Below are positions 10,596 through 49,383 of a stretch of DNA of 64,000 bases, one piece after another. Position numbers and translations under genes: made by a program. This DNA comes from Desulfopila aestuarii DSM 18488 (GTDB lineage: Bacteria; Desulfobacterota; Desulfobulbia; Desulfobulbales; Desulfocapsaceae), in NCBI GenBank assembly GCA_945863875.1, contig CAMBBS010000007.1, positions 25,259 through 89,258 of the forward strand, written 5' to 3'. Position 1 is the stretch's first letter, and the number at the start of each line of letters is the position of its first letter. The notes under the pieces were generated by a model, which was not told the DNA's origin, made no database searches, and saw only the letters and a list, made by a program, of their open reading frames with translations.

Positions 10596-11298
10596 TGAAA
10601 ACAATTGGAATCCCTGTATGATGACAAAAATGTCTATTACCTCATTGCCTACAAGGATCCGACGAAAAGTCTCGCCCGGTTCCCATGGGTCAAACAGGCC
10701 GAAGGCTGTATGATCGCCTGTAACCTCAATGAGCCGGGAGACACCTCACCCGGCCGAAAATATACCGAGACTGCCGGGGAGACCATCGACATGTGGCATG
10801 CCAAATACGTCCGTTCCCTGCCGATGGGTGTGTTGGATGACCAGTATGTCGACAACAACACCGCCCCCCAAGGCAAATGCCGGCTGGGGCCGTCAGAGCG
10901 ATACCGGAAAAGGCGGATACAGGAATACTGACAATGCCCAGAAATCCGGCCCAGCGTTCATGAACCTGAAGCCTAATGCAGAGGACATGTACTACGTCAT
11001 TCCAAGCAAAAAAGTGCCTTTTGTCGACACCTTCAAGGAGGGCGATATCCAGCCCGGAATCGACATTGCACCGATGATGGGTGGCCGTGCCGACATCCTC
11101 TCCCGCAACAATTATGCGGATGGCACCTGGACTCTAGAGGTGATGCGGTCACGGAAAACCGAAGGTGAAAATGTCGACACCGAGGACGTTCAGTTCACCG
11201 ATACGGGCAAGAGCTATCCGTTCGGAATCGCTGTTTTCGATAATTCACAGATCAACCATCTCTTTCACACCGAGACACTTGAGATGAAGTTTCAATAA
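10596..11298 (+). pseudogene. EB_dh / DOMON-like haem-binding domain protein (ethylbenzene dehydrogenase gamma-like), disrupted
   Basis: RBS AAAGGAG plus ATG at 10596 gives only 'MKTIGIPV*'. The body resumes out of frame with 'SLYDDKNVYYLIAYKDPT...IDMWHAKYVRSLPMGVLDD', so no signal peptide or first part is present. A second frameshift occurs at a C6 run near 10873, before '...GPAFMNLKP...GTWTLEVMRSRKT...FGIAVFDNSQINH'. Confidence 0.65.
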
Positions 11299-11659
11299 GT
11301 ACACGGTGCCATAGATCATAGAACAATCGACACAGAAAAGTACAACAGCGAGGAGCCTTTGTTATCAATGGCTCCCGCTGTTTGTCGTTTCGTGGCTGGT
11401 ATTTTAAATCGCAGTTACACCAGTCTCCGCCCAGCTTGTGCACTTTTCCCAGCCTCCATTTGTCGTTTCTCCTCTTCATTTTCTCTTCACCGGCTCCAGC
11501 GGTGGCACTTTTCGTTTTGCTTTCACTCGGTGTCTCTGCTGAAAAGAACCGGTCTCTCCGGTGCGGCATGATATTTATTTGTTATTTCGCAACAACAGTT
11601 TTACTATGTCGAGGTACAATTTTATTAGCACTGAATCTGCTTTGTAAAACAACTGAGCT

Positions 11660-12481
11660 ATGAAAGACTATTATAAAATACTGGGAGTAACCAAGGCAGC
11701 AGGCGAGGAAGAGCTCCGCAAAAACTACCGCAAGCTGGCTATGCAATATCATCCCGACCGAAATCCGGACGACCTGGCGGCAGAAGAGCGATTCAAAGAA
11801 ATAGCCGAAGCATATGGTGTCTTGAGTGATCCGGTGAAAAAGCGTGAATATGACGCCTGCAGGGCGAGCGGAAAGACATTTGCCGGCGGCCAGGCTGGTG
11901 GCGGTGACGGCTTTACCTATAGCCAGGAAGATATTCTCCGGGATCTTTTTAAAGATCCGCGTTTTCAACAGATGTTCAGCGGTATTTTGCGGGAATTTCA
12001 ACGCTCCGGCTTCCGGTACAGCTCGCAGTTCGTCAAAAAAAGTTTTTTCGGCGGCAGAGGCGGCATGCTGGTCGGTGGTATTTTCTTTCTTGGTTCCCTG
12101 GCCGGACCTTTGCTGACCGGGGCCGCGCGAAAAAGTCTTGCGGGAAAATCCTCCATGCTTAAGTCAGTCGGCAGCGCGGTAGGCTCCCTGCTCGGCATGG
12201 GCAAAGGGAAAGAGAGACGCAATACCAGAAAAAATACGCCTTCACAAGCCCATTTGCTCGATCTCGACGTAACCTATCATACCCCTCTCACCCCCGACGA
12301 ACTCCGGCGAGGCAAAACCATCCAGGTCCTCGTTTATGGGGAAAACGGGGAACAAACCCTGAAGGTCAGCATTCCACCCGGCAGCAAAGATGGCCGGAAA
12401 CTGCGCATCCGCGGCAAAGGCCGTCCCGGCCCACAGGGCAGAGGCGACCTCTATCTGCATCTGGTCAAGAAGGAAGGCTGA
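11660..12481 (+). CDS. J-domain (DnaJ/CbpA-like) protein
   Basis: '[34 protein letters not shown]' carries the HPD motif. A Gly-rich hydrophobic middle follows ([22 protein letters not shown]). The C-terminus '..[22 protein letters not shown]' resembles a DnaJ CTD fragment. Confidence 0.8.
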
Positions 12482-13420
12482 TCAACTTTCTTCCCTGGTG
12501 TTCTGCAGGACGACCATGGCCGCAAGGACAACAAGGACTCCGGGAATGACCCGAGCCGGAGGCAGCCCGTGTCCCAAGGCCAGATCGATAATCAGCACCA
12601 GTCCGGGATACAGATAGGAATAGGCCATGACCCGGGTGGAACCAAGGTAGGGCACTGCGTACTGGGTGAGGAAAAAAGTTACAATTGTTGTAAATACGGC
12701 AAGATAGGCAACACCACCCCAGACAAAGAGCGGCACGGTCGACCAGACCACGGTGGGCAGTTTACTCCCGGCAAAAAGAAGCAGCCAGAGACTCCCGGTT
12801 ACCAGCACCCAGAAGGTCATGATCGCCATCGACTCCCCCCGGTGCAGAAGTTTAACCAGAGGGGTATAGAGTCCCATGGCGAAGCAGCCGCCGAGAAAGA
12901 TGGCATCCCCTTTGTTCCATTGCATAGCAAAAAGCTGCGAAAAATCACCACGGAAAATGACCCAGACCACCCCGATCAACCCGCAGGCAAGGGCCAGCAG
13001 CTGCTCTCTTCGCAAGCGCTCTCTTAAAAAAAGAAGGGCGTAGCCACCTGAAATAGATGGTACCAGGGCGAAGATAACACTGGTATTGAGGGCACTGGTG
13101 TAACGAAGAGATAAAAACATGCAGCAGAAAAAAATCACCAGACAGCCGCTGATCAGGGCGCAACGGAAAAAAAGCGGCAGAGAAAATCCCAAACCATAGC
13201 GAAAATGCACCCAGGGCCCGAAAATACAGGCAGCTAGAGTAAAGCGTACCAGGGTCAGCACAGCCGGATTGAGTTCTGCGGCAATCGCCGCACCAACCGT
13301 AAACGATGTGGAAACCAGTATCGCCGAAATGACCATCAGCAGATGAATAAACCCGAGGGGATATTTTTTCTCCTGCTGGTCAAGCAGGAGAAGCGCTTTA
13401 TTACGGCGAGGCAGTGTCAT
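12482..13420 (-). CDS. DMT-superfamily (EamA-like) permease
   Basis: 312 aa, about 10 TM segments, two-fold repeat architecture typical of EamA. Confidence 0.75.
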   Translation of the reverse strand: MTLPRRNKALLLLDQQEKKYPLGFIHLLMVISAILVSTSFTVGAAIAAELNPAVLTLVRFTLAACIFGPWVHFRYGLGFSLPLFFRCALISGCLVIFFCCMFLSLRYTSALNTSVIFALVPSISGGYALLFLRERLRREQLLALACGLIGVVWVIFRGDFSQLFAMQWNKGDAIFLGGCFAMGLYTPLVKLLHRGESMAIMTFWVLVTGSLWLLLFAGSKLPTVVWSTVPLFVWGGVAYLAVFTTIVTFFLTQYAVPYLGSTRVMAYSYLYPGLVLIIDLALGHGLPPARVIPGVLVVLAAMVVLQNTREES

Positions 13421-14385
13421 CAGCTGCGAAAACGGACCTCCGGTTCATCACCGGCGGCCCCCCTCTCTTTTTGAACGTGCTGGAAGGTAGCCATTGCCGA
13501 GGCGATCATACTGCTCATATCGGTGAGATTTCCGGGGACGATCATCGTGTTGTTTTCTTTGGCGAGTTTTCCAAATTCGGTAAGATACTGTTTGGCCACC
13601 TCAAGATTGGCCGCCTCCTTGCCTCCCGGAAAAGAAAGGGCTTCGGCAACCTTTCTAATGCCTTCGGCCGTCGCCTCGGCAACCTTGAGGATCTCAAGCG
13701 CCCGGCCTTCCGCCTCGTTGACCCGCTTGATTTTCTCACCTTCGGACAGGTAAATGGCCTCCCCGCGATCCCCTTCGGCCCGATTGAGAATCGCCTGTTT
13801 CTCCCCCTCGGATCGGGCAATTTCCGCCCGTTTCTCCCGCTCGGCCTTCATCTGTTTTTCCATCGCTTCGAGGACCGTTCTCGGCGGCTGAATATCCTTA
13901 ATTTCGTAACGAAGCACCTTGACCCCCCAATTTGCGGTGGCCTCATCAAGGGCCATCACCACCTGGCCGTTGAGACTTTCCCGCGCCTCGAAGGTGTTGT
14001 CGAGTGAAATTTTGCCGATTGCCGAGCGCAGGCTAGTCTGGGCAAGCTGGGTGGCGGCAAAACGATAATCGTCAATGCCGTAGGCGGACATTTTCGAATT
14101 GACCACCTGCAGATAGAGGATGCCGTCGACCTCCAGAGTCACGTTATCAGCGGTTATGCAGGTTTGCGCAGCGATATCTATTGGTTCTTCCTTTAACACT
14201 CTGCGGTAGGCGATGACATCCAAAAACGGAAAGAGGATGTGAAAGCCGGCCTCCAGGGTCGTCCGATACTTGCCGAGTCGTTCTATGACGAACTCAGATC
14301 GCTGGGGGACCACCACCGCCGTTTTCCAGAGAACGACGACAATGAGTAACAAAATAACGCCGAGAGCTATCAGATTTTGTTCCAT
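13420..14385 (-). CDS. SPFH/band-7 (stomatin/prohibitin-like) membrane protein
   Basis: N-terminal TM, then 'VVPQRSEFVIERLGKYRTTLEAGFHILFPFLD...TADNVTLEVDGILYLQV', then a coiled-coil E/A/K-rich tail. Confidence 0.88.
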   Translation of the reverse strand: MEQNLIALGVILLLIVVVLWKTAVVVPQRSEFVIERLGKYRTTLEAGFHILFPFLDVIAYRRVLKEEPIDIAAQTCITADNVTLEVDGILYLQVVNSKMSAYGIDDYRFAATQLAQTSLRSAIGKISLDNTFEARESLNGQVVMALDEATANWGVKVLRYEIKDIQPPRTVLEAMEKQMKAEREKRAEIARSEGEKQAILNRAEGDRGEAIYLSEGEKIKRVNEAEGRALEILKVAEATAEGIRKVAEALSFPGGKEAANLEVAKQYLTEFGKLAKENNTMIVPGNLTDMSSMIASAMATFQHVQKERGAAGDEPEVRFRS

Positions 14386-18503: not shown

Positions 18504-18983
18504 ATGTCCCCTCGAACTCTACTCTTATTACTCCCGCTCCTATCCAGTCTGCTGTCCTGTTCCAGCACGCCGCCAGCCGGCAAACTGATAGAAGGCCACC
18601 TCCGGCCATGCCCAAACCGTCCGAATTGCGTCTCCAGTGAAAATGGTGGCAGCGCCCCGGTTGCACCAATCAGCTTCAGGAGCAGTCCGGAGCAGGCCTG
18701 GCAGATAATGCAGACGGTCATAGAAAGGCTTGGCGGCAAGATTAGTGATCGCGGGCCGACGTACCTCTGGGCTACGTTTAGCTCGAGATTTTGCCGCTTT
18801 GTCGATGATGTCGAGCTGCGCCTGGAAACGGAGGAAAAAATCATGCACATTCGTTCCGGCGCCAGGGTCGGTTACGCGGATTTCGGCGTCAACAGGAAAC
18901 GGGTTGAGACGATACGAAAGCTCTTCACGGAACAGGAAAATCAGCCTCATCGCCCCGCCCCATCCGGCACGAAGCCTCAGTAG
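18504..18983 (+). CDS. DUF1499-family lipoprotein
   Basis: Start moved to 'MSPRTLLLLLPLLSSLLSC' (lipobox LLSC). Contains 'LRPCPNRPNCVSSE', characteristic of DUF1499. Confidence 0.7.
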   Translation: MSPRTLLLLLPLLSSLLSCSSTPPAGKLIEGHLRPCPNRPNCVSSENGGSAPVAPISFRSSPEQAWQIMQTVIERLGGKISDRGPTYLWATFSSRFCRFVDDVELRLETEEKIMHIRSGARVGYADFGVNRKRVETIRKLFTEQENQPHRPAPSGTKPQ

Positions 18984-19095
18984 ACGTCGGTTGGTCGCTC
19001 ATCTCCACCTTGAATTGAGGTGCAAAATCACGGTGGGCTGAATGGGTTATAATACCGCACTCATCCAGCCCAACATTAGTGCATTGCTGCACCAG

Positions 19096-19692
19096 TTATT
19101 TATCGGCCAGCGCTTCAAGGCTGACAAGAATTTCGACATCTTTGCCGACAACGCCCATCTCATAAAATTTACCGGTACCGACTTTATAGACCAGACGGTC
19201 AATGGTCACCTCACCATTAAAGCCGATAACATCCTTGTCTGTAACTGCCGGATGCCCTTTTATTCCGGCCAGAGTGAGCGGCAGGGTCAGGTCGTAGGTT
19301 TCTCCCTTGACCGTGAATTTGCCAAGCACGTCGTAAACATTATTGCCCACATCAGTGATTTTCACCGATTCAAAGGTCATCAAAGGAAATTTACCTGCAT
19401 CAAAAAAATCGCCGGACTGGAGATGCTTATCACGCTTGGCGATATTTGTGTTGACGGAGTCTGTCTTGATTTCAAAAAAAAATCTGCTTTCCGCCAGATT
19501 ATCAGGGTCAAATTTCAATTCGCCGGAAAATTCGTCAAACTGCCCACCAATCTGAGAAAAAATATGCCCGACGCGAAAATAAAAATTGGAATGGGCCTTG
19601 TCCAGTTCCCAATTCCGCATTGCCGCCGACACCGTTTGCCCTGCCACAAGCAGAAAAATGAGTGCTAAGGTGATAAAACTGAATTTTTTCAT
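19096..19692 (-). CDS. YceI-family periplasmic (polyisoprenoid-binding-like) protein
   Basis: Signal peptide, then 'WELDKAHSNFYFRVGHIFSQIGGQFDEFSGELKFDP' and 'FFDAGKFPLMTFES'. Confidence 0.85.
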   Translation of the reverse strand: MKKFSFITLALIFLLVAGQTVSAAMRNWELDKAHSNFYFRVGHIFSQIGGQFDEFSGELKFDPDNLAESRFFFEIKTDSVNTNIAKRDKHLQSGDFFDAGKFPLMTFESVKITDVGNNVYDVLGKFTVKGETYDLTLPLTLAGIKGHPAVTDKDVIGFNGEVTIDRLVYKVGTGKFYEMGVVGKDVEILVSLEALADK

Positions 19693-21999: not shown

Positions 22000-22262
22000 T
22001 GAAAGTTACCTTGAAAATTCTTCACTTTCGCGAGTAAAAACCACCCCGGCAACGGTAATGAAAGGTTTTGTCCCAGCACCACCGGCTTAACCCCTTCAAC
22101 CTGTTTAACCACTTGCCGCAGAGCCTGGAACTGGTGGAGCATTCCAGAGTGCCTCTCTCTTCGTTCTTAACGCAGCCCGTCAGCCCTGCGGCCCTGGCTG
22201 TGCCTGGTCAACAGAGGAACTTGCTTGCACAAGCTCCGCCCTTCAGGGCGGGGTAGTTGACG
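22000..22262 (-). ncRNA. candidate omega-RNA-like structured region directly 5' of the iscB relic
   Basis: The minus strand has consecutive strong hairpins: CCGCCC-tgaa-GGGCGG (22226-22241), GCTTG-tg-CAAGC, CAGCC-N10-GGCTG, CTGGAA-N11-TTCCAG and CCGGTGGTG...CCGGGGTGG. There is no credible ORF. In IscB loci the guide RNA scaffold occupies exactly this position. Confidence 0.35.
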
Positions 22263-27773: not shown

Positions 27774-27817
27774 ATAGAGTCAGAGGATGCGGAACATCCC
27801 GCATCCTCTGACTCTAT
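27774..27817. terminator. 19-bp perfect hairpin, bidirectional terminator between purM (+) and moaB (-)
   Basis: ATAGAGTCAGAGGATGCGG-aacatc-CCGCATCCTCTGACTCTAT followed by TTT. The genes are convergent. Confidence 0.8.
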
Positions 27818-27822
27818 TTGAG

Positions 27823-28338
27823 CTACACAACCCCGCAGTCACCCTCTCCGCCCCTGATTTTTTCCAGAGCATGGGGAATAACCGGCAAAACAACCGCCAG
27901 ATTTTCCTTTACCGCCTTCAAACTGCCCGGCAGGTTGATTATCAGACTTTCTTTGCGTATGCCGACTTTCCCTCGAGAAAGCATGGCCCGCGAAGTTTTC
28001 AGGAGACTAGCACTGCGCATGGCCTCCGCCATCCCGGGTATTTCCCGCTCAATAACCGAGGCCATCGCCTCAGGGGTAATATCCGAGGGAGAGACACCAG
28101 TGCCACCAGTGGTGACGATAAGGGCGATCTTCTCATCATCGACAAGCCTGATAAGACTGTCGATGATGATCTGTTGGTTATCGGGAATGACCTTGTAAGA
28201 CTGCAGGCGATAGCCTTCTTCAGCCAGTTTTTCCTGCAGATATTGTCCACTGGTATCTTCGCGTTCCCCGCGGGAGCCCTTGTCACTCATGGTCAGGACC
28301 GCAAAAGAATAATTTTCGTGCATGTCAGTTCGGATCAA
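27823..28338 (-). CDS. moaB: MoaB/MogA-family molybdenum cofactor biosynthesis protein
   Basis: 'AVLTMSDKGSRGEREDTSG', 'LIVTTGGTGVSPSDITPEA' and 'INLPGSLKAVKE'. Confidence 0.85.
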   Translation of the reverse strand: MIRTDMHENYSFAVLTMSDKGSRGEREDTSGQYLQEKLAEEGYRLQSYKVIPDNQQIIIDSLIRLVDDEKIALIVTTGGTGVSPSDITPEAMASVIEREIPGMAEAMRSASLLKTSRAMLSRGKVGIRKESLIINLPGSLKAVKENLAVVLPVIPHALEKIRGGEGDCGVV

Positions 28339-28341
28339 CCG

Positions 28342-30405
28342 TTAATTGTTTTCTGCGTTTGCCTGGGCAACTATTTTTTCAGCGATTTGCGCGGGCACTT
28401 CTTCATAATGCGAAAAAGAGACGGTGAAGCTGCCAAGCCCACCGGTCATGGAGGTAAGGTCCGTCGCATAGGACAAAATTTCTGATTGAGGCACCTGGGC
28501 ATTAATTATTTCCAGTCCATCAGCGGAGTCCATACCCATAACCTTGCCGCGGCGGGAGTTGAGATCTCCCATGACATCACCAACACTCTCTTTGCCCACC
28601 TTGATTTCCATGTTCATATACGGCTCAAGGAGAACCAGCCCGGCTTCCTGTGCTCCCCTTTTGAAGGCGAGAGATCCGGCAATCTTGAAGGCCATCTCCG
28701 AGGAATCGACATTATGGAAAGAGCCGTCGACCAGAGCAATTTTCACGTCAATGACCGGGTAGCCGGCAAGAACGCCTTTTTCCATGGCTTCCTGAATGCC
28801 TTTATCAACTGCGGGACGGTACTGCTGCGGAATGACACCGCCGACGATTTTATCGACGAATTCATAGCCGCCACCGGGCAGCGGAGAAATCTCTATCCAG
28901 CAATCACCAAACTGCCCCCGACCGCCGCTCTGTTTTTTGTGTTTTCCCTGTACCCTGGCCGTCGATCGGATCGTCTCCATATAAGGAATCTTCGGGGTAC
29001 TCAGCTCCATCTGCACACCGAATTTTTTCTTGATCTTCGAACCAACGACATCAAGATGCACCTTGCCGACACCGGACAACAGTACCTGTTTTGTTTGCGG
29101 TTGACGGGTAAGACTCAGGGTCAGATCCTCATCGAGCATTCTGGTGATAGAGGAAAAGACCTTTTCTTCGTCGCCCTTTTTCGCACTGACGGCATAGGAA
29201 ATTACAGGTCTTAAAGGCTCGGGTACCGGTAGAATGACCGGATGAGACGCATCACACAGCGTATCTCCGGTGGCGGTTTCCTTAAGTTTGGCCAGCGCGA
29301 TAATCGCCCCCGGCCCGGCACTCTCCACCGGTTTCTGATCTTTTCCCTCGAGCACGTAGAGCTGTCCAAAACGCTCTGTCGTCTTTTTCGTGGAATTGTA
29401 GAAGGTATCGCCTTTGAGGGTGCCGCTGAAAATTCTTAAAATGGTCAGCCGGCCGGCATACGGATCGGCCATGGTTTTGAAAACCAGGGCGGTAAAAGGG
29501 CTGTCGGGGGTAGGACTGATTTCTACCGTCTCATCACTGTCAACTTTTTTGGCGGCAATAGGCTGACGATCCGAGGGACAGGGCATGAGCAGATTGATGG
29601 TATCAAGAAGAGGAGCCGTGCCCTTATTCAGGGTCGCCGCGCAGACACATATCGGGGCGAGAGTTGCCGAGGCTACAGCCTGCTGCAGGCCACGCAACAG
29701 CTCGTCCTCGGTCAGTTCGCCTTCTTCGAGAAATTTTTCTATCAACTCATCGTCGGTTTCGGCAACTTGTTCCATCAGAGCTTCACGAAGCGAAGCCGCC
29801 TCGTCCGCTAAATCGGCAGGGATTTCGGTGGAGTGAACCATTCCTTTGTCACCGTCAAACAGAAATGCCTTCCCGGTTATTATATCGACATAGCCTTTAA
29901 AATTATCCTCGGCACCGATCGGCAACTGGACGATAACGGGGTTAAAGGCCAGGGATTCTTTTATTTCATCAACCGTTTTCTGGAAATCGGCACGCTCACG
30001 GTCCATTTTGTTGATGGCGATTATCGTCGGCAGCTTTCTCTCTTTTATGATATTGGAAAATTTGATGGTCTGCCCCTTCACGCCAAGCACGGCGCCTATG
30101 GTGAACAGAGCGCTGTCGCATACGTGCGACGCAAAGATAGTCTCATTGAGAAAATTGTCGTCACCCGGCGTATCGATAAGGAAGACAGTGTGTTTTTTCC
30201 AGTTATAGTTATGAAAGCTATTATTGATCGATATTTGCCTGGCTATTTCTTCTTCTTCATAATCCATCGCTGCATTGCCGTCATCAACCTTACCGAGTCG
30301 GTTAATTTTCCCAGCCGTAAAAAGCATTGCCTCAGCAAGAGAAGTTTTACCACAATTACCATGACCAATTATTGCAACGTTCCTGACCATATTTGTTTCC
30401 TGCAT
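28342..30405 (-). CDS. elongation factor G paralog (EF-G2-like translational GTPase)
   Basis: 'RNVAIIGHGNCGKTSLAEAMLF', 'LIDTPGDDNF', 'AINKMDRE' and domains II-V present. Start moved to the ATG at 30405, preceded by GGAGA. Confidence 0.88.
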   Translation of the reverse strand: MQETNMVRNVAIIGHGNCGKTSLAEAMLFTAGKINRLGKVDDGNAAMDYEEEEIARQISINNSFHNYNWKKHTVFLIDTPGDDNFLNETIFASHVCDSALFTIGAVLGVKGQTIKFSNIIKERKLPTIIAINKMDRERADFQKTVDEIKESLAFNPVIVQLPIGAEDNFKGYVDIITGKAFLFDGDKGMVHSTEIPADLADEAASLREALMEQVAETDDELIEKFLEEGELTEDELLRGLQQAVASATLAPICVCAATLNKGTAPLLDTINLLMPCPSDRQPIAAKKVDSDETVEISPTPDSPFTALVFKTMADPYAGRLTILRIFSGTLKGDTFYNSTKKTTERFGQLYVLEGKDQKPVESAGPGAIIALAKLKETATGDTLCDASHPVILPVPEPLRPVISYAVSAKKGDEEKVFSSITRMLDEDLTLSLTRQPQTKQVLLSGVGKVHLDVVGSKIKKKFGVQMELSTPKIPYMETIRSTARVQGKHKKQSGGRGQFGDCWIEISPLPGGGYEFVDKIVGGVIPQQYRPAVDKGIQEAMEKGVLAGYPVIDVKIALVDGSFHNVDSSEMAFKIAGSLAFKRGAQEAGLVLLEPYMNMEIKVGKESVGDVMGDLNSRRGKVMGMDSADGLEIINAQVPQSEILSYATDLTSMTGGLGSFTVSFSHYEEVPAQIAEKIVAQANAENN

Positions 30406-47623: not shown

Positions 47624-47684
47624 ATCGGGGCATACCGCCGCCGGGTATATGCATCGCGGAGAAAGCCGGTCCAAGAATGTTACC

Positions 47685-49283
47685 ATGACTGCCAAAAAAA
47701 TCCTCTGTTTCACCTTCTGTCTTGTTCTTTTTTTTGCTCCTGACGGTTTCACGCAGACAGCCGGGCAGAGCATAGCAACATCCTTTACTCTTCTTTTCTC
47801 AGGCAACGTTTGGGGGGAGTACGAGCCCTGCGGGTGAAGTTCAAATCAGCTGGGCGGACTGTCCGGCAAGGCGCATTTATTAGCAGCATTGAGGGCGGAA
47901 ACAGCACAGCCGCTGCTTGTTGTCGATGCCGGCAATCTTCTTTTTCAAACGGCTCTCAGGGGTGCAGGGGAAGACGACAAAACCACCGCCCTCATCATCG
48001 CCCACGGCATCGTCAGGGCGTATCAGGGGATGGCCTATGATGCTGTGGCCATCAGCGCAAATGACCTTTCCGCCGGGGCTGCATTTTTCCAGCAATCCGC
48101 TGACCAATCTTTTCCCTGGGTGGCCGCCAATGTCAGTGACCAAAACGGCAGGGCGGTTGTTCCCGCACATAGTATTAAAAAAATCGCCGGCCTGACTATC
48201 GGTATTATCGGCCTGACGGGAGGGACCGGCAACGATGTTGCCGGTTTTATCATCGATGACTGGCGCACGGCCCTCAAGACAGAAATCACCTTACTTGAAA
48301 AGCGCTGCGACATATTACTGGTTCTCTCTACCCTGACGCCGGCTGAAAATAATGAAATACAGCAAAATTACAAACAGCTCGACATCGTTGTTTCCGCTGA
48401 CAACAAAGGGGCAAATATTCAACCGCAGGTGTTTCAGAACAGCCTCCTTGTGCAAAGCGGAAGTCGAGGAAAATATATAGGCAGGCTTGATATCACGAGG
48501 CATGGCCCAGGCAACTGGTACACTGCTCCCTCTCCATCACCGGCAGAAAGACCAGCCAGACTTACGGCCATCGACCGGCAACTGGGGCAACTTGAGAAAG
48601 AACAGCGCGAAACAAACAGGGATTTCAGCCAGAAAATCGCCCGGCTGCAATCGTATCGGCAAAGACTTTCCGAACAAATAGGCCAATACAAGCCAGAAGA
48701 CAGTGCCAGTACCATAGCCCCGTCCAAAAGGTTCCAATATGCTACTCTGGCGGTTAAACCGACATCGTCCCGTGCGGACACCCAGACCATCGTCCAGGAC
48801 ATCAAAAAGAGCATTGCCGCCTTGAACAGATACCGGCATGCCGGGATTCAAGCAGACGACCCGGCTCTTCTCTACGCGCTGCAGAAAAATGAGATAGTTG
48901 GTGGCAGCGCCTGCCTGCCTTGCCATGCAAAACAAACTGAATTTTGGAAAACGACCAAGCACGCCGACGCTTTTTCCACCCTTGCCGAGCAGGGCCAGAC
49001 TTTTAATCTCCAGTGCCTCCCTTGCCATGTCACTGCCGGGAGAGTCATGGCGTCCTCTGTCGACTCAGAACTGCTGTTTCTCCTCTCGCTCGATACCGAT
49101 CGTCAAACAATCGGTTGTGAGGTCTGTCACGGTCCCGGGAACAACCATCTTCTTTCCCCTGAAACAACAGCACCGCTGCGATTACCTCCTGAAGAGATCT
49201 GTCGGCAATGCCACACCCCAGATCGAGACGGCACTTTCAGCTACCCCGGAAAACTCGCGGCAATTGCCTGCCCGGCCAGTTGA
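47685..49283 (+). CDS. candidate selenoprotein: signal peptide + degenerate 5'-nucleotidase/metallophosphatase-like domain carrying C-G-[TGA] + C-terminal tetrahaem cytochrome c
   Basis: ORFs 47649..47837 and 47889..49283 share a frame, with 17 stop-free codons between them. The single in-frame TGA is at 47835-47837. There are four CxxCH sites (CLPCH, CLPCH, CEVCHGPG, CRQCH). Signal peptide 'MTAKKILCFTFCLVLFFAPDGFTQ'. Confidence 0.55.
47849..47867 (+). promoter_or_regulatory. candidate bacterial SECIS hairpin
   Basis: GCUGGGCG-GAC-UGUCCGGC starts 11 nt after the UGA: 8 bp including 3 G-U pairs, with an apical loop beginning with G about 20 nt from the UGA. An alternative tighter fold is CGGA-cug-UCCG. 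Confidence 0.35.
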
Positions 49284-49304
49284 CCCAAGAGGGCATAAAA
49301 CAAA

Positions 49305-49335
49305 GAGGGCAGTTACATATGCTGTAACTGCCCTC
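49305..49335. terminator. bidirectional hairpin terminator between the cytochrome gene (+) and ppaC (-)
   Basis: GAGGGCAGTTACA-tatgc-TGTAACTGCCCTC: 13-bp perfect stem. A run of A precedes it and TTTT follows. Confidence 0.75.
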
Positions 49336-49383
49336 CGGATTTTCCGCGGCGGAGATAAAAACGCCGTTTTTAATCAGTTTTTC

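Follow-up and report, generated by a model that had tools for sequence, protein, structure and literature searches.

Comparative evidence for a selenocysteine codon in a UshA-like tetrahaem (seleno)protein of Desulfopila aestuarii

Overview

Within the 64,000 nucleotides of Desulfopila aestuarii DNA analysed here (hereafter ‘the window’), the in-frame UGA at 47835-47837 is very probably a selenocysteine (Sec) codon; a reading strongly supported by a column of Sec or Cys in orthologous sequences and by a SECIS-like hairpin confined to those orthologs that carry TGA, the two comparisons having been proposed as checks in the original prediction. Read through, the gene belongs to a predicted selenoprotein family that is already catalogued: the call is correct, but it is no new discovery. 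The product combines a signal-peptide-like leader, a degenerate UshA-fold domain carrying a Cys-Gly-Sec motif, a helical linker, and a cytochrome c554-like domain with four haem-binding sites.

Results

A single TGA interrupts the reading frame

Re-reading the forward (+) strand gave the same result as first described: the open reading frames at 47649..47837 and 47889..49283 share one frame, with the TGA at 47835-47837—located immediately behind ...GEYEPCG—as the sole stop between them. Comparison with the N-termini of orthologs indicates that translation probably begins at ATG 47685 (MTAKKIL..., MTAKKILCFTFCLVLFFAP...) rather than at ATG 47649, thus defining a complete coding sequence at 47685..49283 (+), also delimited by its translation and by its match to the NCBIfam model NF041198 (see below). 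The gene comprises 532 codons, with Sec at codon 51 and its own stop codon, again a TGA, at 49281-49283; residues are numbered throughout from the methionine of ATG 47685 (M1).

Working from the N-terminus downwards, residues encoded by 47685..47759 (+; MTAKKILCFTFCLVLFFAPDGFTQT) resemble a signal peptide, with a hydrophobic core behind a basic n-region; orthologs with a complete N-terminus all have a comparable leader ahead of the TGA. Close to the mature N-terminus, E-P-C-G-TGA (47823-47837) makes up a P-C-G-(U/C) motif, which homologs read as either EPCGC or EPCG-TGA. Within it, Cys49-Gly50-Sec51 (TGC GGG TGA; 47829..47837, +) forms a ‘CxU’ motif, as identified from the Sec/Cys column in orthologs and from full-length homologs, which do indeed read EPCGC, as the original prediction had suggested for relatives.

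A different partition of the locus would have two genes, with the TGA closing a short exported peptide and a separate cytochrome gene starting from TTG 47889, and automated annotation does call the downstream frame alone (P0001 and others). Attachment of c-type haem, however, requires export of the cytochrome, and the called downstream product has no signal peptide by itself; since the only export signal is upstream of the TGA, the downstream frame cannot be a functional stand-alone gene. In addition, translation from the supposed start would remove part of the first helix of the UshA fold, the called start positions vary between orthologs, and the Cys-form homologs are continuous single proteins across the point occupied by the TGA. 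We consider two genes highly improbable, and retain the proposal of a single exported tetrahaem protein, with its leader upstream of the TGA and four CxxCH sites in the read-through product.

Selenocysteine or cysteine at the TGA column

To compare codons, DNA for relatives of the protein was fetched—close relatives being retrieved individually—and the codon was read at the gap-free EPCG-x column. A metagenome scan with the single protein gave pattern matches with zero relatives confirmed, and a genome scan with the alignment gave mostly distant relatives, the haem pattern saturating. TGA occupies the column in 18 distinct orthologous sequences (the window included), at roughly 28-97% protein identity, and TGC or TGT in 13 other sequences. 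The TGA forms derive mostly from Desulfobulbia, with Myxococcota and a Cognaticolwellia MAG contributing one each; the TGC/TGT forms from Myxococcota, Acidobacteriota, Scalindua and, as three Cys forms, Desulfobulbaceae. Upstream of the TGA, all of the TGA-bearing loci keep an open frame, which encodes a conserved beta-strand. Inspection of the aligned residue, the check proposed at the outset, therefore returns Cys in 13 sequences and TGA in 18.

Two sequences depart from the common pattern. One full-length protein homolog (P0089) reads EPCGS, placing Ser at the Sec/Cys column, which might reflect a naturally inactive variant or else an error in sequencing or assembly. A TGA-form ortholog (L023, gene from 6055) has just three CxxCH motifs followed by an unrelated C-terminal tail, which points to a frameshift or assembly error close to its 3′ end.

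Searching the 64-kb window with E. coli SelA/B/D (tblastn) found no selA, selB or selD, nor was a tRNA-Sec, or indeed any tRNA, detected there. Elsewhere, the locus L027 from an Acidobacteriota MAG encodes a SelA homolog (11287-12618, -; 43% identical to E. coli SelA) some 5.5 kb from a Cys-form member of the UshA-like family, a proximity that is probably coincidental. The window holds no second TGA-bridged gene with a Cys-x-Sec-like context. A lone TGA also bridges three further long frames, at 27778-29214 (+), 18724-19668 (+) and 13351-14196 (+), all without a Cys/Sec-like context; these may be adjacent genes or pseudogenes.

A SECIS-like hairpin specific to the TGA forms

Downstream of the TGA, a SECIS-like hairpin is present at 47849..47867 (+), just where the original prediction had placed it. 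Its stem of 6-7 bp pairs 47849/47850-47855 with 47861-47866/47867, around a GGACU loop at 47856-47860, and is separated from the UGA by a spacer of 11 nt. Counted from the U of UGA (nt 1), the stem joins nt 15/16-21 to nt 27-32/33, and the apical loop (nt 22-26) reads GGNCU in the orthologs.

At least 6 contiguous pairs form in this register in 18/18 UGA sequences and in 0/13 Cys sequences (Fisher 4.8e-9), and the hairpin's covariation score was matched by 0/500 shuffles, although both of these figures overstate independence, the orthologs being related and the region coding for a conserved peptide. Across the alignment, pairing reaches 100% at the six core pairs, compared with 23-48% when the register is slid. 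At pair 16-32, 13 sequences have C-G, four have U-A and one has U-G; this pair displays compensation from C-G to U-A. Part of the nucleotide conservation of the hairpin arises because the region encodes a conserved peptide; two Cys forms from Desulfobulbaceae (L090 and L092) encode the same QLGGLS peptide with other synonymous codons, and have lost the hairpin. A third Desulfobulbaceae Cys form (TGC; L091:5139-5185) keeps 5/6 core pairs together with a GGGCU loop, possibly as a fossil SECIS left by a recent conversion of Sec to Cys.

Of the two hairpin checks put forward initially, conservation in TGA-containing orthologs alone bore the structure out, whilst folding of 47835-47900 did not: the minimum free energy structure of this single sequence is without the hairpin (z = -0.09 against shuffles). 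Thermodynamics alone was therefore dropped as evidence for the hairpin, and, with the single-sequence fold so unremarkable, its significance derives from the comparison of orthologs only. No SECIS-type model in Rfam matched the hairpin, either at the gathering threshold or in a permissive scan.

The closest point of reference is the SECIS of E. coli fdhF which, as read from the genome, shares both the 11-nt spacing between UGA and hairpin and a GGUC loop beginning at nt 22; the fdhF loop, GGUC(U), is identical in 10/18 orthologs, which read GGUCU. The window differs at loop position 3, with A (GGACU) in place of the U of fdhF; its stem, which lacks a bulged U, is unrelated in sequence. By analogy with fdhF, the hairpin with its GGNCU loop would serve to recruit Sec-tRNA-bound SelB.

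Might the UGA instead be recoded as something other than Sec, for instance through near-cognate decoding as Trp, Gly or Cys, or under an altered code? The search of the window for Sec machinery, which found none, would sit with such a scheme. Against this, the gene itself terminates with a TGA, one that is without such a hairpin, from which it follows that the genetic code is standard; homologs carry Cys at the aligned position, with Ser in a single case; the geometry and loop of the hairpin are fdhF-like; and Desulfobulbales, along with other Thermodesulfobacteriota, are described as selenoprotein-rich in a recent review (PMC13188914). Non-Sec recoding is accordingly very unlikely, and we proceed with Sec51.

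A degenerate UshA-type domain

The N-terminal domain (approximately residues 31-275; 47775..48509, +) is a degenerate metallophosphoesterase domain of the UshA/5′-nucleotidase type, as indicated by hhalign (probability 98.4 against E. coli UshA), by Foldseek (E of about 5e-18 for the N-domain of a family model against 1HP1/1USH), and by a PDB profile search, in which the family profile matches solved 5′-nucleotidases, cytochrome c554 and SoxB. An AF2 model of a full-length Cys form (P0062) has a pLDDT of 86.6 and a pTM of 0.82, its least confident part (pLDDT < 50) being the Cys-Gly-Cys loop, the second Cys of which corresponds to the Sec position. The window's own post-TGA fragment is modelled with a pLDDT of 87.4.

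The hhalign alignment with UshA reveals the substitutions D41N, H43W, D84N, N116A, H117N, D120S, H217T, H252D and Q254K. We take these residues of the E. coli enzyme, each confirmed in its sequence, to be the seven metal ligands and the catalytic His-Asp dyad (DxH, GD, GNH[ED], H, GHxQ/H); all nine (9/9) positions are thus substituted. Because every ligand and both members of the dyad are replaced, activity as a dimetal phosphoesterase is ruled out for the window protein. The UshA/calcineurin fold with replaced metal ligands that had been proposed is borne out by these fold matches and substitutions. E-P-C-G-U itself is a five-residue insertion, directly behind motif I.

Whilst the fold of its N-domain likens the protein to E. 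coli UshA and CD73, the C-terminal nucleotide-binding domain of these 5′-nucleotidases is gone, with helices and a tetrahaem domain in its stead; Pfam searches found no C-terminal 5′-nucleotidase substrate-binding domain, the matches being to cytochrome families only. A further relative is the SoxB thiosulfohydrolase, which has in common with it the superfamily fold, a periplasmic location and, given the metabolism of the host organisms, a link to sulfur; the structure 2WDC was matched by Foldseek, and sequence scores were weak, at 30-50 bits, with 30 bits on the SoxB model TIGR04486 against a cutoff of 550. SoxB, however, keeps its dimanganese site and is without haems or Sec, unlike the window protein.

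Linker, tetrahaem domain and a C-terminal Cys/His column

A helical linker follows (approximately residues 276-403; 48510..48893, +), seen as long helices in both AF2 models, its length being variable across the UshA-like family. This leads into a tetrahaem domain of the cytochrome c554 type (48894..49280, +), the only part of the protein that Pfam detects (PF13435; 40.8 bits against a cutoff of 20.8), with PDB matches to cytochrome c554 (1BVB) and to 6I5B. Its four CxxCH motifs—C410-H414 (48912-48926), C444-H448 (49014-49028), C478-H482 (49116-49130) and C506-H510 (49200-49214), all on the + strand—are invariant in the family, as are just two histidines of the haem domain that lie outside these motifs, H426 and H488. 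The likeness to Nitrosomonas cytochrome c554 (PF13435) extends to the four CxxCH motifs.

Further along, at some 10-11 residues past the F-x-Y that follows the fourth CxxCH, there is a column that is Cys or His in every family member; in the window it is Cys529 (49269..49271, +), within the C-terminal ...IACPAS. As only two other non-CxxCH histidines are invariant, this column is a natural candidate for a distal haem ligand. Cytochrome c554 has one five-coordinate haem; given three candidate distal ligands, one of the four haems here may be five-coordinate.

As a new side observation, the identity of this residue appears largely to track that of the active site: presumed Sec forms have Cys in 79 cases and His in 6, whereas CGC forms have His in 17 and Cys in 7. 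The DNA-verified loci display the same trend (Cys with Sec, His with Cys). The pattern is phylogenetically clumped. Taken at face value, Cys529 may serve as the third distal haem ligand, giving His/Cys as opposed to His/His ligation, or as the thiol partner of the selenol.

The pseudogene reading, in which a Cys codon (TGC/TGT) mutated to TGA and so truncated a former Cys protein, is one we hold to be scarcely credible, and the comparative data have effectively refuted it already: pseudogenes were described elsewhere in the window by the original prediction, several TGA-bridged frames occur there, and public-database gene callers truncate all these orthologs, but the TGA is common to 18 distinct orthologs down to ~28% identity, with open and conserved flanking frames, a leader kept upstream and a downstream hairpin specific to TGA forms; the confident model of the post-TGA fragment argues against decay; and the orthologs exhibit neither relaxed selection nor frameshifts, save possibly for the damaged C-terminus of L023.

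Membership of a catalogued family

Scored with Cys in place of Sec, the protein reaches 425.9 bits on NF041198 (curated equivalog cutoff 275), residues 14-520 of 532 aligning with positions 4-518 of the 519 in the model. This model bears the name ‘UshA_like_PCGU’ and the product name ‘UshA-like (seleno)protein’, and two database homologs have already been so named by NCBI. The family has been in print as a predicted one since 2008, when Zhang and Gladyshev included ‘COG0737, UshA-like, CxU’ in their selenoproteome table (PMC2398784); it was relisted among predicted selenoprotein families in a 2022 review (PMC9312934), and a 2026 review lists NF041198 explicitly beside a second family, NF049981 (PMC13188914). 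The entries for the family in these three papers (PMC2398784, PMC9312934 and PMC13188914) assign it no function, and it goes unmentioned in the Olavius symbiont paper of 2007. The gene is, then, a member of a known predicted family, scoring above its cutoff, and the suggestion of a candidate new selenoprotein is not supported.

Nothing essential distinguishes the window protein from the family of NF041198 and Zhang and Gladyshev, with which it shares P-C-G-U, the UshA-like N-domain, a C-terminus with four CxxCH motifs and hosts among the Desulfobulbales; it is, however, more degenerate at motif I, with S-G-N-V-W against a consensus of S-N-D-V-Q/R. NF049981 (‘UshA-like (seleno)protein family 2’, CxxU) is a related but distinct family, matching in the N-domain only (57.6 bits against a cutoff of 140). 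Other multihaem cytochrome families with predicted Sec are also catalogued, among them ExtKL (NF040886) and the Sec forms of the octahaem family TIGR04315, as set out in the 2026 review (PMC13188914). On NF040886 and TIGR04315 the protein scores far below the respective cutoffs and, unlike the Sec forms of those families, it has its Sec in a separate, non-haem domain. In public protein collections, its close orthologs are all N-truncated entries, called either ‘hypothetical protein’ or ‘cytochrome c554’.

Genomic context

A terminator-like 14-bp inverted repeat (49304..49336), assigned to the minus strand and accompanied by a T-run, is situated 21 nt past the stop of the gene, between it and a convergent DHH/DHHA2 gene. 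In close relatives the UshA-like gene comes after tolQ-tolR-tolA-tolB-TPR(ybgF-like)-FtsJ-type methyltransferase and is itself followed by the convergent DHH/DHHA2 gene (309 aa), beyond which a 340-aa protein lacking any Pfam match is encoded. When neighbours were clustered over 31 loci, no conserved functional partner emerged, only lineage-level synteny with housekeeping genes.

Approximately 5 kb downstream, at ~54.3-57.1 kb of the window (placed by synteny with L081:14404-17212), are genes for a TorD-like chaperone (PF02613), a 747-aa molybdopterin oxidoreductase and a 4Fe-4S subunit; these look like a respiratory reductase of the Psr/Phs/Ttr type and are kept in close relatives. Over the family as a whole, the TorD-like and molybdopterin oxidoreductase genes show no linkage to the UshA-like gene. 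One Cys-form locus adjoins DsrE-like and rubredoxin genes, another HdrA/FlpD-like genes, neighbours that offer only hints of sulfur or redox metabolism. On the other side of the gene, an Rfam match to HEARO RNA (HNH endonuclease-associated RNA and ORF; RF02033, 113.7 bits against a gathering score of 83) at 22034-22261 (-) suggests a mobile element of the IscB/IS200-605 type nearby.

Discussion

The gene very probably encodes an intact selenoprotein, made by reading the UGA as Sec and exported via its N-terminal signal peptide, which consists of a metal-emptied UshA-fold domain bearing a Cys-Gly-Sec loop, a helical linker, and a four-haem domain resembling cytochrome c554. Such a protein would be a periplasmic redox enzyme, whose selenol/thiol pair would react with a small substrate whilst the haem chain would exchange electrons with periplasmic carriers, in one direction or the other. 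The most likely substrate, the hosts being Desulfobulbales, would be a compound of sulfur or another chalcogen. Judged by its anatomy only, then, the protein probably amounts to a Cys/Sec redox site ‘wired’ to four haems and acting on a sulfur or chalcogen substrate, with Cys529 as a putative distal haem ligand or selenol partner. His/Cys ligation of haem is a feature of the thiosulfate-oxidising TsdA and SoxAX.

More tentatively, we put forward the fuller possibility of a new periplasmic, chalcogen-transforming enzyme of the sulfur-cycling Desulfobulbales, built from a phosphoesterase fold emptied of its metals, a Cys-Gly-Sec centre and a four-haem ‘wire’, in which Cys529 would act either as a His/Cys haem ligand or as the resolving partner of the selenol; a proposal about which we remain more doubtful than confident.

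For annotation the finding has a modest relevance, since every close ortholog is recorded in N-truncated form: recognising the Sec codon restores the real protein, including a signal peptide and an active-site loop that are otherwise missing from the annotation. For the family, the fully degenerate dimetal site, the fdhF-like SECIS with its defined pairs, and the C-terminal switch between Cys and His provide handles for characterisation.
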